From Escherichia coli (GTDB taxonomy: Bacteria > Pseudomonadota > Gammaproteobacteria > Enterobacterales > Enterobacteriaceae), in assembly GCF_050320075.1 (NCBI RefSeq), contig NZ_CP190018.1: a stretch of DNA of 64,000 nucleotides, one strand, 5' to 3'. The notes beneath the pieces are model-generated. The model was not told the DNA's origin. It saw only the letters and a program-made list of their open reading frames with translations, and searched no databases. A program made the translations under genes and the position numbers. Below, in pieces: positions 2 through 6,985 of this stretch; position 1 is the first letter of the stretch, and the number at the start of each line of letters is the position of its first letter.

Positions 2-388
2 AAATATTACTGCGATCGCGCAATGGCTAAAAAGTTTGTGCTGAACTTCAGGCCCGGCTATGCCGCCAATATCAACGATTACCTCCCGGAAAAACTGTCG
101 ACACGTCTGGCTGAGGAGTCTGTTTCCCTGTGGCTGTCTACCTGTATTGCCGGTGTGGTGAAGCCTTATGCCAACGGTGCTCACGCATGGGAAATGAGCG
201 TTGTCAGAGTGCGTCGAAGCTGGTGGAAAAAACATCGGGATGAGTTTTCTTTACTGGAAGGGGATGCGTTCAGGCAGTGGTGCATTGAACAGCGGCAAGA
301 GCCGGAGATGGCAAACGTGATTTTAGTCACCGATGACGAAAGTTGCGGGTATTCGGCTATGGAAGGATTGACTGGCAAGGTTGGTTGA
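2..388 (+). CDS. cas3: Cas3 C-terminal region (partial, 5' end outside window)
   Basis: Open frame runs from position 2 with no upstream stop and ends at TGA 386-388, directly upstream of cse1; position matches cas3 in type I-E operons. No motif-level confirmation possible on this fragment. Confidence 0.55.
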   Translation, partial: KYYCDRAMAKKFVLNFRPGYAANINDYLPEKLSTRLAEESVSLWLSTCIAGVVKPYANGAHAWEMSVVRVRRSWWKKHRDEFSLLEGDAFRQWCIEQRQEPEMANVILVTDDESCGYSAMEGLTGKVG

Positions 389-485
389 GATGCCTGCGAC
401 AGGGCTCTCTGAATAGTTGATACACCGAAAAGGATGGAATGATGGACAACCGACCAGGGATGGTCTTTTTTACGAGAGGATGCGT

Positions 486-2048
486 ATGAACTCGTTTTCA
501 CTTCTGACAACCCCGTGGTTGCCCGTTCGTTATAAAGACGGAACGACAGGCAAACTGGCGCCAGTCGATCTGGCGGATGAAAATGTTGTCGATATCGCTG
601 CGCCGCGGGCAGATCTCCAGGGGGCGGCATGGCAGTTTTTGCTGGGACTATTACAAACCAGCTTCGCGCCAAAAGATCAACGTCGTTGGGATGATATCTG
701 GGAAGACGGACTGGAAGCTGAAAAGCTACGGGAAGCATTGCTGTCATTAGACCATGCTTTCCAGTTCGGGCCAGATTCACCTTCATTTATGCAGGATTTT
801 GAGGCGCTCACGGGAGATAAAGTTCCGGTCGCTTCGCTACTGCCTGAGATTCCCGGCGTTCAAACAACAAAGTTTAATAAAGACCACTTTATCAAGCGTG
901 GTGTAACGGAACACCTGTGCCCACAGTGTTCTGCACTAGCCTTGTTCTCTCTACAGTTAAATGCGCCGTCAGGTGGCAAAGGCTATCGCACCGGCTTACG
1001 CGGCGGTGGGCCGATGACCACGCTGATTGAATTACAGGAATATCAGGGCAATCAACAAACTCCCTTGTGGCGCAAACTATGGCTCAACGTGATGCCGCAG
1101 GATGAAGCCGACTTACCGCTACCCAAAAAATTTGACGATCTGATTTTCCCCTGGCTAGGCCCGACGCGTACCAGCGAACTGGCCGGTGCGGTGGTAACCC
1201 ATGATCAGGTCAATAAACTCCAGGCGTACTGGGGAATGCCGCGGCGTATACGTATTGATTTTAATACCACGACAGTCGGCAACTGCGATATTTGCGACGA
1301 GCAGAACGACGCGCTCCTGAGCCTGATGACGACCAAAAATTATGGTGCCAATTATGCCATGTGGCAGCATCCCTTAACGCCTTACCGTGTACCACTTAAA
1401 GAGGGGGGCGAGTTTTACTCCGTTAAACCACAACCGGGCGGTTTAATCTGGCGCGACTGGTTAGGCCTTATCGAAACGGGTAAATCAGAAAACAATACGG
1501 AACTTCCCGCGCTGGTGGTGAAACTCTTTAATGCCAGCAGTCTGAAACAGGCAAAAGTGGGCCTATGGGGATTTGGTTATGATTTTGACAACATGAAAGC
1601 GCGCTGTTGGTACGAACACCATTTCCCGCTACTGCTCAATAAAAAAGAAGGCCAGATACCGAAGCTGCGGCTGGCTGCGCAAACGGCTTCACGGATTCTG
1701 AGTCTGTTACGGAGTGCATTGAAAGAAGCATGGTTCTCCGATCCAAAAGGTGCAAGGGGTGATTTCAGTTTTGTGGATATCGACTTCTGGAACAAAACTC
1801 AGCATCGCTTCCTGAGGTTAGTGCGCCAAATTGAAGAAGGTCAGGATGCGGATGAATTACTCGGCAAATGGCAAAAGGAAATTTGGTTATTCGCGCGTCA
1901 GGATTTTGACGAGCGTGTATTCACTAATCCTTATGAGCCCGTTGATTTGAAACGCGTCATGACCGCGCGCAAGAAATATTTTACAACATCGGCGGAGAAG
2001 CAAAGTGCTAAAGCCGCCAGGGAGAAAAAGCAGGAGGCTGCTGAATGA
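486..2048 (+). CDS. cse1: Cse1/CasA, Cascade large subunit (type I-E)
   Basis: 520 aa from ATG 486, preceded by GAGAGGA RBS. N-terminus MNSFSLLTTPWLPVRY and GYRTGLRGGGPMTT segment resemble Cse1; first gene of the Cascade operon. ORF-track start at 417 is judged an upstream extension. Confidence 0.85.
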   Translation: MNSFSLLTTPWLPVRYKDGTTGKLAPVDLADENVVDIAAPRADLQGAAWQFLLGLLQTSFAPKDQRRWDDIWEDGLEAEKLREALLSLDHAFQFGPDSPSFMQDFEALTGDKVPVASLLPEIPGVQTTKFNKDHFIKRGVTEHLCPQCSALALFSLQLNAPSGGKGYRTGLRGGGPMTTLIELQEYQGNQQTPLWRKLWLNVMPQDEADLPLPKKFDDLIFPWLGPTRTSELAGAVVTHDQVNKLQAYWGMPRRIRIDFNTTTVGNCDICDEQNDALLSLMTTKNYGANYAMWQHPLTPYRVPLKEGGEFYSVKPQPGGLIWRDWLGLIETGKSENNTELPALVVKLFNASSLKQAKVGLWGFGYDFDNMKARCWYEHHFPLLLNKKEGQIPKLRLAAQTASRILSLLRSALKEAWFSDPKGARGDFSFVDIDFWNKTQHRFLRLVRQIEEGQDADELLGKWQKEIWLFARQDFDERVFTNPYEPVDLKRVMTARKKYFTTSAEKQSAKAAREKKQEAAE

Positions 2049-2581
2049 GTATTGTAAAAGAGGAGCACAAAGCCACGCTGCGTAAATGGCACGAAGAGTT
2101 GCAGGAAAAACGCGGCAATCGTGCCAGTCTGCGGCGTAGCACAACGGTTAATGATGTTTGTCTGTCAGAAGGGTTTCGTTCTCTGCTGATGCAGACCCAC
2201 ACTTTGTGGAAAATTGAAGCACAAGAGTGGCGTTTTACCGCACTGGCGCTGGTCGCCGCAGTTAGCGCCAATGTTAAAGCTATTGATGAACGGCAGCCTT
2301 TTGCCGCGCAGCTGGCGGCGGTAATGTCGGAGGGGCGTTTTACTCGCCTGTCGGCAGTAAAAACGCCTGATGATTTACTGCGTCAGTTACGTCGCGCGGT
2401 CAAATTATTAAATGGTTCCGTCAATCTTATCTCTTTGGCAGAAGATATTTTCCGCTGGTGCCAGGAGAGCGACGACCTGCTCAATCATCACCGCCGCCAG
2501 CAGCGGCCAACAGAATTTATCCGTATCCGCTGGGCGCTGGAATATTACCAGGCTGGCGACGCCGATAACGAACAAAATTAA
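2045..2581 (+). CDS. cse2: Cse2/CasB, Cascade small subunit
   Basis: 178 aa, ATGA overlap with cse1 stop; size and position as expected for cse2. Confidence 0.8.
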   Translation: MSIVKEEHKATLRKWHEELQEKRGNRASLRRSTTVNDVCLSEGFRSLLMQTHTLWKIEAQEWRFTALALVAAVSANVKAIDERQPFAAQLAAVMSEGRFTRLSAVKTPDDLLRQLRRAVKLLNGSVNLISLAEDIFRWCQESDDLLNHHRRQQRPTEFIRIRWALEYYQAGDADNEQN

Positions 2582-5960: not shown

Positions 5961-6250
5961 GTATGGTCGTCGTTGTTACAGAAAATGTCCCTCCGCGCTT
6001 ACGTGGACGGCTCGCGATCTGGCTCCTGGAAGTGCGTGCCGGTGTTTATGTCGGAGATACGTCCAAACGTATTCGGGAGATGATCTGGCAGCAAATCTCT
6101 CAACTGGCAGGTTGCGGAAATGTGGTAATGGCCTGGGCGACCAATACCGAGTCGGGTTTTGAATTTCAGACCTGGGGTGAAAATAGACGTATTCCGGTGG
6201 ATTTGGATGGGGTGCGTTTGGTTTCTTTTCTTCCTGTTGATAATCAATAA
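5957..6250 (+). CDS. cas2: Cas2
   Basis: 97 aa, [34 protein letters not shown], near-identical in character to E. coli Cas2; ATGA overlap with cas1. Confidence 0.95.
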
Positions 6251-6346
6251 GTTATCTGTTCTTTAAAAATAAGGAAATGTTTTAATTTAGTTGGTAGATT
6301 GTTGATGCGGAATAAATTTGTTTAAAAACAGTTATGTATGCTTAGT
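6251..6346 (+). promoter_or_regulatory. CRISPR leader (AT-rich, between cas2 stop and first repeat)
   Basis: 96-bp AT-rich segment immediately upstream of repeat 1 on the sense side; leader position next to cas2 as in E. coli CRISPR-I. Confidence 0.7.
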
Positions 6347-6985
6347 GTGTTCCCCGCGTCAGCGGGGATAAACCGACAATCAGATCACGATCGATGCCTC
6401 GCGTGAGGTGTTCCCCGCGTCAGCGGGGATAAACCGATTTTCGCAGCGGGTAACCGCGCCCGGCGATCGTGTTCCCCGCGTCAGCGGGGATAAACCGTTT
6501 ATGTGGAGTATCAGTGCCTGGGTGGAAAGGTGTTCCCCGCGTCAGCGGGGATAAACCGTGGGGCTGAGCATGGCTAAACAACCGAGGCGCGTGTTCCCCG
6601 CGTCAGCGGGGATAAACCGGTCAACTGGCACCACAGGATGATGGCGGCGAAGTGTTCCCCGCGCCAGCGGGGATAAACCGCAGGTCGACCGACTGGAGGC
6701 GGAGATTGTCGGGTGTTCCCCGCGCCAGCGGGGATAAACCGTGTTGTTTTTCTGCCGGATTAACGCGGTGCGAGTGTTCCCCGCGCCAGCGGGGATAAAC
6801 CGTTGTCGGGCTTGTTCGGCGCGGGTTGTTAACTGTGTTCCCCGCGCCAGCGGGGATAAACCGCCAGCGAAGGACTTGCTCGTGTGGTTAAAGCCGTGTT
6901 CCCCGCGTCAGCGGGGATAAACCGGACGCACTGGATGCGATGATGGACATCACTTGGAGTTCCCCGCCCCTGCGGTAGAACTCCC
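6347..6985 (+). CRISPR. Type I-E CRISPR array: 10 full 29-bp repeats, 10 spacers of 32 bp, plus a degenerate terminal repeat
   Basis: Repeat GTGTTCCCCGCG(T/C)CAGCGGGGATAAACCG at 6347, 6408, 6469, 6530, 6591, 6652, 6713, 6774, 6835, 6896 (period 61 bp); terminal degenerate repeat GAGTTCCCCGCCCCTGCGGTAGAACTCCC at 6957-6985. Sense strand is + (hairpin then AUAAACCG 5' handle). Confidence 0.97.

Follow-up and report, generated by a model that had tools for sequence, protein, structure and literature searches.

An Escherichia coli type I-E CRISPR-Cas locus of the cas-E1 kind and the relation of its Cas1-Cas2 module to that of K-12

Why should the interference genes of an Escherichia coli type I-E CRISPR-Cas locus be so remote from those of laboratory strain K-12 while its Cas1 and Cas2 look K-12-like? 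The question is raised by positions 2–6985 of a 64,000-nucleotide stretch of E. coli DNA (contig NZ_CP190018.1, assembly GCF_050320075.1), the whole of which is referred to throughout as the window. A preliminary description, made from the nucleotide sequence, read this segment as the second allelic I-E operon type of the species with a conserved adaptation module. Our analysis indicates, with a probability of about 0.88, that the segment is the ordinary cas-E1 (also called cas-EO) form of the E. coli chromosomal type I-E locus at the cysH-iap site. It looks unusual because K-12 carries the rarer version.

Assignment of the locus to a known variant

Within the segment, the 3' end of cas3 precedes seven intact cas genes of type I-E, which are followed by a leader and an array of 10 spacers. 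Gene order is cas3-cse1-cse2-cas7-cas5-cas6e-cas1-cas2, the type I-E signature, no cas gene in the window has an internal stop, and the Prokaryotic Genome Annotation Pipeline (PGAP) annotation of an identical strain agrees. All seven complete products (7/7) score above the curated NCBIfam cut-offs for type I-E equivalogs. The individual genes are as follows.

2..388, plus strand: 3' fragment of cas3, the last 128 codons plus stop, translated in frame without internal stop; the gene runs off the window start.
389..485, plus strand: cas3-cse1 intergenic spacer, 97 nt (K-12 counterpart, 414 nt).
486..2048, plus strand: cse1/casA (Cas8e), 520 amino acids; TIGR02547, 607.9 bits (cut-off 70).
2045..2581, plus strand: cse2/casB (Cas11), 178 amino acids, ATGA overlap with cse1; TIGR02548, 102.7 bits (cut-off 28.5).
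2596..3651, plus strand: cas7e/casC, 351 amino acids; TIGR01869, 448 bits (cut-off 178).
3662..4408, plus strand: cas5e/casD, 248 amino acids; TIGR01868, 157.8 bits (cut-off 69).
4390..5040, plus strand: cas6e/casE, 216 amino acids, 19-nt overlap with cas5e; TIGR01907, 287.8 bits (cut-off 45).
5037..5960, plus strand: cas1e, 307 amino acids, GTG start, GTGA overlap with cas6e; TIGR03638, 380.9 bits (cut-off 215.6).
5957..6250, plus strand: cas2e, 97 amino acids, ATGA overlap with cas1; TIGR01873, 131.6 bits (cut-off 33).

The ATGA, GTGA and 19-nt overlaps are those given in the preliminary description, which also had a leader and array following the cas genes, as is the case. Its statement that all eight cas genes are intact stands for the seven complete ones; for the eighth the window gives no basis, since its start cuts through cas3. 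The cas3 fragment matched no NCBIfam model because it is too short. The 899-amino-acid Cas3 annotated in E. coli YZLc1-3 has an identical 3' end, and in that full-length protein the HD motif, the Walker A (GxGKT) lysine and the DExH box align with K-12 Cas3. The cas6e start is the same as that called by PGAP in YZLc1-3. Catalytic positions are conserved: K-12 CasE H20 aligns with a conserved histidine, H30, in Cas6e, and the Cas1 residues E141, H208 and D221 are invariant relative to K-12.

Each protein was compared with its counterpart at the MG1655 locus of K-12. Identity was 31% for Cas3, 23.2% for Cse1, 32.6% for Cas7, 35.0% for Cas5 and 31.2% for Cas6e. Cse2 had no similarity to K-12 CasB detectable by tblastn and reached about 25% in a forced alignment. 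The family-level similarity proposed for Cse1, Cse2 and Cas6e is thereby borne out, with none of the three above 90% identity on alignment, and the CasA N-termini quoted for K-12 and for the window were correct. Cas1 and Cas2, estimated by eye at around 85%, measured 84.9% and 85.1%. Cse1 scored 101 bits against the K-12-type model NF007247, whose cut-off is 576 bits; together with the 23–35% identity of Cas3 and Cascade, this places the locus outside the K-12 (cas-E2) type.

The chromosomal position is equally ordinary. Two E. coli chromosomes, those of YZLc1-3 and Ec-U3, match window positions 1–7000 at 100% identity, and positions 6996–56995 show 0 mismatches to YZLc1-3, in which cysI, cysH, a hok/gef gene and an intact cas3 of 899 codons lie upstream. 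Downstream of the array are iap (7006–8043, minus strand) and then cysD, cysN and cysC. The interval between cysH and iap is the fixed site of the I-E locus in E. coli.

The variant has been named cas-EO, with leader-A and repeat-A (Diez-Villasenor 2013; PMC3737337), cas-E1 (Almendros 2014; PMC3903273) and var. B-8552 (Slukin 2025; PMC12736100). The first of these studies linked the type-A repeat and leader-A to the cas variant and reported the acquisition motif CWT for cas-EO versus CTT for K-12. The second found E1 to be the major form, clustering with Salmonella and E. albertii and having a mean G+C of 53.5%, and E2 (G+C 45.6%) to be present in K-12, some phylogroup A strains and E. fergusonii; it concluded that E1 was replaced by E2 in a minority of strains. 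The mean G+C of the genes in the window is somewhat below that published for E1. The third study listed identities to K-12 of 29% for cas3, 23% for casA, 31% for cas7, 32% for cas5, 29% for cas6, 84% for cas1 (73% in DNA) and 86% for cas2 (75% in DNA), a table nearly the same as ours.

At a threshold of at least 80% coverage, the Cascade allele of the window was present in 2428 of 5426 complete E. coli genomes and the K-12 allele in 1115 of the same 5426. The preliminary description was therefore right that this is a described non-K-12 variant, but by frequency it is the majority form, of Escherichia/Salmonella type, and not a second one. The variant, its prevalence and its per-gene identities to K-12 are all in the literature, so the finding is already known and the locus is a textbook member of a published variant.

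Leader, array and predicted activity

The cas genes are followed by these elements.

6251..6346, plus strand: CRISPR leader (the leader-A of the literature), 96 nt, about 26% G+C.
6347..6985, plus strand: CRISPR array, ten 29-nt repeats of GTGTTCCCCGCG[T/C]CAGCGGGGATAAACCG and ten 32-nt spacers at an exact 61-nt spacing.
6957–6985, plus strand: degenerate terminal repeat at the array end.
Spacer 1 of the array: corresponding protospacer sequence, ACAATCAGATCACGATCGATGCCTCGCGTGAG.

The leader retains the conserved blocks and is 69% identical to that of K-12, 91% to that of E. albertii and 66% to that of Salmonella. The repeat pattern matched 10 times, against 0 expected by chance from shuffles. 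Folded as RNA, the repeat forms a 7-bp hairpin with a tetraloop (-15.2 kcal/mol) and places the T/C polymorphism in the loop. Repeats begin GTGTTCC here and GAGTTCC in K-12. Terminal spacer 10 matches the terminal spacer of K-12 save for 2 mismatches, and the degenerate repeat is common to both; this spacer and repeat are reported to be common to most strains (PMC3903273).

The arrays of seven relatives, six chromosomal with identical or near-identical Cas proteins and one a plasmid copy, differ mainly by internal spacer loss. The window array is a deletion derivative of the shared set: spacer 11 is missing between spacers 5 and 6, and spacers 12 and 13 are missing between 2 and 3. Only strain C1 among the seven has two extra leader-proximal spacers. 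The loop base is T in repeats 1–5 and 10 and C in repeats 6–9. This pattern was considered as a sign of recent acquisition and rejected: it is inherited in related strains, and the array differences are mostly deletions.

By the established I-E pathway, transcription of the array would start from the AT-rich leader, and Cas6e would cut each repeat at the base of the 7-bp hairpin. Cse1, Cse2, Cas7, Cas5 and Cas6e would then assemble with the 61-nt CRISPR RNA (crRNA) into Cascade, which would find protospacers flanked by a protospacer-adjacent motif (PAM) and recruit Cas3 for degradation, and Cas1-Cas2 would insert new 32-nt spacers beside the leader. We infer expression, crRNA processing, interference and adaptation from the gene content in this way. 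Control of these steps is likely to differ from K-12, where the 414-nt cas3-cse1 region holds the Pcas promoter controlled by H-NS and LeuO, since only 97 nt separate the two genes here. A weak terminator-like hairpin, followed by a T-run, was seen at 452–465 within this spacer.

Several results weigh against the picture of an ordinary, working locus. The part of cas3 in the window is limited to its last 128 codons. A simple scan of positions 1–7100 found no consensus sigma-70 promoter on the plus strand, including 389–485; the scan returned 3 promoter-like sites (5.5 expected) and 11 terminator-like sites (8.8 expected), counts that are not above chance and are uninformative. The 10 spacers yielded no credible protospacer among 50,697 phage and 72,556 plasmid records. 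Strains with identical Cas proteins have arrays that differ mostly by loss of internal spacers, which gives no sign of recent immunity.

In the searches with spacers only, the best phage E-values were 1 or higher. Strong plasmid matches were exclusively to other E. coli arrays (mislabelled chromosomes or pIOMTU792), and weaker ones straddled the junctions of concatenated spacers. A search with the whole array was also tried and set aside, as its matches were mostly repeats of other CRISPR arrays. The plasmid pIOMTU792 (NZ_LC542972.1, 240730–248177), a 293-kb conjugative IncHI2A replicon, carries a 7.45-kb copy of a chromosomal segment equivalent to window 718–8165. The copy begins in a truncated cse1 and extends past cas2 and an array that retains 9 of the 10 window spacers to iap; its protein accessions are identical to those of the window and it is without cas3. 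blaCTX-M-15 and ISEcp1 are about 2 kb away, a position consistent with mobilization of the segment by ISEcp1.

An intact but silent relic, neither expressed nor protecting the cell at present, the state reported for K-12 with its system silenced by H-NS, would account for spacers without a detectable phage or plasmid target, for array differences dominated by deletion, for the missing consensus promoter and for the slow spacer turnover and possibly silent state of CRISPR described in E. coli (PMC2886076). We consider it a serious possibility, although one that falls somewhat short of an even chance, because seven open reading frames are intact with conserved catalytic residues, the ratio of nonsynonymous to synonymous differences per site (pN/pS) in cas1 is about 0.04 against Salmonella, the Cas proteins are identical across many strains and strain C1 has its two additional leader-proximal spacers. 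Moreover, plasmid-expressed Cas1-Cas2 of the same variant supported spacer acquisition in O157:H7 (PMC3737337). Silence would be a matter of regulation and is compatible with the cas-E1 assignment as the best explanation of the locus.

Cas1-Cas2 and the interference cassettes

The similarity of Cas1 and Cas2 to K-12 was taken in the preliminary description to mean that the adaptation module is conserved within E. coli. This is correct for the proteins, but it does not extend to the DNA: cas1 is 70.4% identical to K-12 (pS 0.83, pN 0.119) and cas2 73% (pS 0.73), with pN at 0.12–0.13 across cas1 and cas2. Synonymous sites of both genes are saturated. The flanking genes cysH, cysD, cysN and iap have a pS of only 0.07–0.16 to K-12 at 96–98% DNA identity, and their products are near-identical (Iap 98.6%, CysD 100%, CysH 99.6%). 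Cas1 and Cas2 are thus K-12-like as proteins only, and the saturated synonymous sites next to low flank values argue that the cas1-cas2 of the window is a separate old allele belonging with the rest of its operon, not a retained native module. This conclusion agrees with an earlier one that the whole cas group is co-transferred, with recombination at the flanks or in the CRISPR (PMC2886076). Dating the E1/E2 split from synonymous divergence was attempted and dropped, as pS values of 0.73–0.83 are saturated. Saturation also means that dS cannot separate old shared ancestry from a somewhat younger exchange, and tree congruence was therefore used instead.

To place the module in a wider clade, loci were collected by a scan on the Cas1 alignment, with one genome per species; the best 80 of 202 Cas1 relatives were analysed with 10-kb flanks. 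Cas1 was 75–99% identical to that of the window in all 80, whichever of three Cascade types adjoined it, even in hosts as distant as Marinomonas, Methylophaga, Oceanospirillum, Bordetella and Parasutterella. Type a is the window-like Cascade (Cas7 84–99% identical), present in E. albertii, Salmonella, Klebsiella, Citrobacter and Phytobacter. Type b (Cas7 identity about 52–59% with the window, about 32% with K-12) was found in Pectobacterium, Dickeya, Raoultella, Pluralibacter and many marine Gammaproteobacteria. Type c is K-12-like (Cas7 51–74% identical), and its hosts are C. amalonaticus, Pantoea, Erwinia endophytica, Marinomonas rhodophyticola, Oceanospirillum linum and Methylophaga lonarensis. 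The same repeat occurs alongside types a, b and c in Enterobacterales.

Between the window and Salmonella, cas1 has a pS of 0.75 at 96% protein identity, a pattern that speaks for extreme purifying selection on Cas1e. Very strong purifying selection throughout the clade would explain why Cas1 and Cas2 look K-12-like: 75–95% of residues are retained although synonymous sites have reached saturation. Where two loci share 20–30% identity in Cascade, their Cas1+Cas2 identity has a median of 78% (range 71–99), and the window/K-12 pair (Cas1+Cas2 85%, Cascade 24.5%) lies in the upper quartile without being exceptional. For the clade as a whole, 85% identity is close to the general floor.

Neighbour-joining trees were built for 61 loci from Kimura distances over tblastn-derived segments with 200 bootstraps, and gave the following support.

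Type c monophyletic: Cascade tree 100%; Cas1+Cas2 tree 0%.
Type a monophyletic: Cascade tree 100%; Cas1+Cas2 tree 100%.
Window, E. albertii and Escherichia sp.: Cascade tree 100%; Cas1+Cas2 tree 100%.
K-12, C. portucalensis and Raoultella (type b): Cascade tree 0%; Cas1+Cas2 tree 94%.
Marinomonas type c with Marinomonas type b: Cascade tree 0%; Cas1+Cas2 tree 100%.
Oceanospirillum type c with Oceanospirillum type b: Cascade tree 0%; Cas1+Cas2 tree 100%.

K-12 Cas1+Cas2 groups with type b and K-12 Cascade is type c, which identifies the K-12 lineage as a probable chimera. In Cas1, K-12 shares about 93% identity with its type-b partners in Raoultella and Citrobacter portucalensis, 86% with C. 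amalonaticus and 85% with the window. Among the loci compared, the closest match to K-12 Cascade is that of C. amalonaticus (Cas7 74%), a species outside the 61-taxon set. A comparison of trees, suggested at the outset as a check for modular exchange, therefore supports shuffling, which seems to concern the K-12 (E2) side and type-c cassettes generally; the window operon is congruent. A further point on the negative side is that the trees are simple and distance-based, and their 61 taxa come from the best 80 among 202 Cas1 relatives, with one genome per species. A relative-rate argument for exchange was also tried: the Cas7/Cas1 pN ratio was 2.3–2.7 for the window versus Salmonella or type b and 4.0 versus K-12, which is suggestive but confounded by saturation, and it was not relied on.

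In the main reading, the whole operon of the window, including its own cas1-cas2 and leader, is a single old allele that E. albertii, Salmonella, Klebsiella and Citrobacter also carry, and it differs from K-12 because K-12 and about a fifth of E. coli have the replacement allele (E2). cas1-cas2, the leader and the near-invariant repeat make up a conserved platform with which three deeply divergent interference cassettes have been combined, and the combination in the window is the congruent one. On a bolder account, to which we give a confidence moderately above even, this would be a resident platform that follows the host lineage, onto which at least three such cassettes (cas3-cas6e) have been swapped repeatedly, with the break at the cas6e/cas1 junction. 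K-12 would then be a chimera of a type-c cassette and an enterobacterial adaptation module otherwise found with type b, and the window would be the non-chimeric reference. A statement that K-12 is a chimera was not found in the literature examined; general shuffling of CRISPR-Cas modules is well established, and the point is a mildly new one.

The literal form of the first proposal, in which the interference genes (cas3-cas6e) alone were exchanged within E. coli and both alleles share a native cas1-cas2, draws on an abrupt shift in similarity to K-12 at the cas6e/cas1 junction (no nucleotide homology across cas3-cas6e, then homology from window 5049, 12 nt into cas1, through cas2, leader and array), on a K-12 cas1 of 51% G+C in an operon otherwise at 44–48%, and on the conflict between the two K-12 trees, but it is very improbable given that cas1 and cas2 are saturated at 70% and 73% DNA identity next to truly shared flanks at 96–98%, that the two leaders are just 69% identical, that K-12 Cas1 is nearer to Raoultella and C. 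portucalensis than to the window, and that co-transfer of the whole cas group has been concluded independently (PMC2886076). The same evidence implies that the shuffling belongs to the E2 lineage and took place before the locus reached E. coli.

Three further observations touch on the history of these modules. The K-12 leader (about 5466–5569, minus strand, of the retrieved locus) has an 11-nt block, the ATGTTACATTA region, in common with the type-a leaders of E. coli E1, E. albertii, Salmonella, Klebsiella and Citrobacter; the block was absent from all sampled type-b and other type-c leaders. This distribution is a hint that recombination had another junction, within the leader. In the gut betaproteobacterium Parasutterella excrementihominis, the I-E Cascade is placed as sister to the type-a clade of enterobacteria at 100% bootstrap (46% for the Cas1+Cas2 tree), which suggests transfer between classes among gut bacteria. 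Finally, metagenome-assembled genomes labelled Bacillota and Collinsella contain short contigs with cas loci about 97–100% identical to the E. coli E1 locus, and these are probably E. coli contamination of the bins.

Surrounding chromosome and comparison with known systems

Beyond the CRISPR-Cas region the window consists of core chromosome that extends from cysDNC by way of rpoS, mutS, hyp/hyc and asc as far as norVW. In YZLc1-3 an intact gene of the Hok/Gef family lies between cysH and cas3 (1842–1994 of the retrieved stretch), a short way upstream of the window start. The K-12 record has the sokX small RNA alone annotated in this interval, and nucleotide homology to K-12 stops at the start of the hok/gef gene. 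Between rpoS and mutS, an interval known to vary within E. coli, a gene for a MarR-family regulator is accompanied by three that encode subunits B, C and D of non-oxidative hydroxyarylic acid decarboxylase (about 18186–21007). Between hycI and ascB, at about 45572–46299, are genes for a HigB-family toxin and a helix-turn-helix antitoxin.

As a discovery the locus is of little importance, given that the variant, its prevalence and its per-gene identities are published. It does underline that K-12 is the atypical E. coli I-E system. What has been measured there on PAM and acquisition-motif preference, the regulatory region and Cascade biochemistry may not hold for about two thirds of the E. coli that carry cas genes. 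A near-constant adaptation module and repeat set against exchanged interference cassettes, with K-12 as a chimera, could merit proper phylogenetic treatment, and the constancy of the module could bear on whether Cas1-Cas2 and Cascade of different variants cooperate in primed adaptation.

Compared with known systems, the window locus and K-12 (cas-E2/cas-EK) have the same subtype, gene order, locus position and 32-nt spacers, an almost identical 29-nt repeat (1–2 nt apart), the same ancestral terminal spacer and degenerate repeat, and Cas1/Cas2 that are 85% identical with the same catalytic residues. They differ in Cas3 and the Cascade proteins (23–35% identical or undetectable), in cas1/cas2 DNA (just 70%/73% identical), in the cas3-cse1 spacer (414 nt in K-12 versus 97 nt), in gene G+C (49.7–55.0% in the window versus 43.5–51.3% in K-12) and, for the variant as a whole, in the acquisition motif (CTT in K-12 versus CWT; PMC3737337).

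The Salmonella, E. albertii, Klebsiella and Citrobacter I-E operons have the Cascade type and the repeat of the window, give trees congruent with it and differ from it at the level of species divergence. All Cas proteins of E. albertii are 93–99% identical to those of the window (Cas7 97%). S. enterica diarizonae is 70% identical in Cas3, 74% in Cse1, 84% in Cse2, 86% in Cas7, 80% in Cas5, 79% in Cas6e, 96% in Cas1 and 94% in Cas2; synonymous sites of cas1 are already saturated between Salmonella and the window.

The closest known system is the cas-E1 variant itself, of O157:H7 type, which has the same site, gene order, type-A repeat (GTGTTCC...), matching leader and G+C range (50–55%). An O157:H7 strain is 96.0% identical in DNA over the cse1-cas6e region, and the gene lengths of var. 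B-8552 equal those in the window (1563, 537, 1056, 747, 651, 924 and 294 bp; PMC12736100). Nothing of substance separates the window locus from this variant; its array is one particular product of deletion from a set of spacers that related strains also have.

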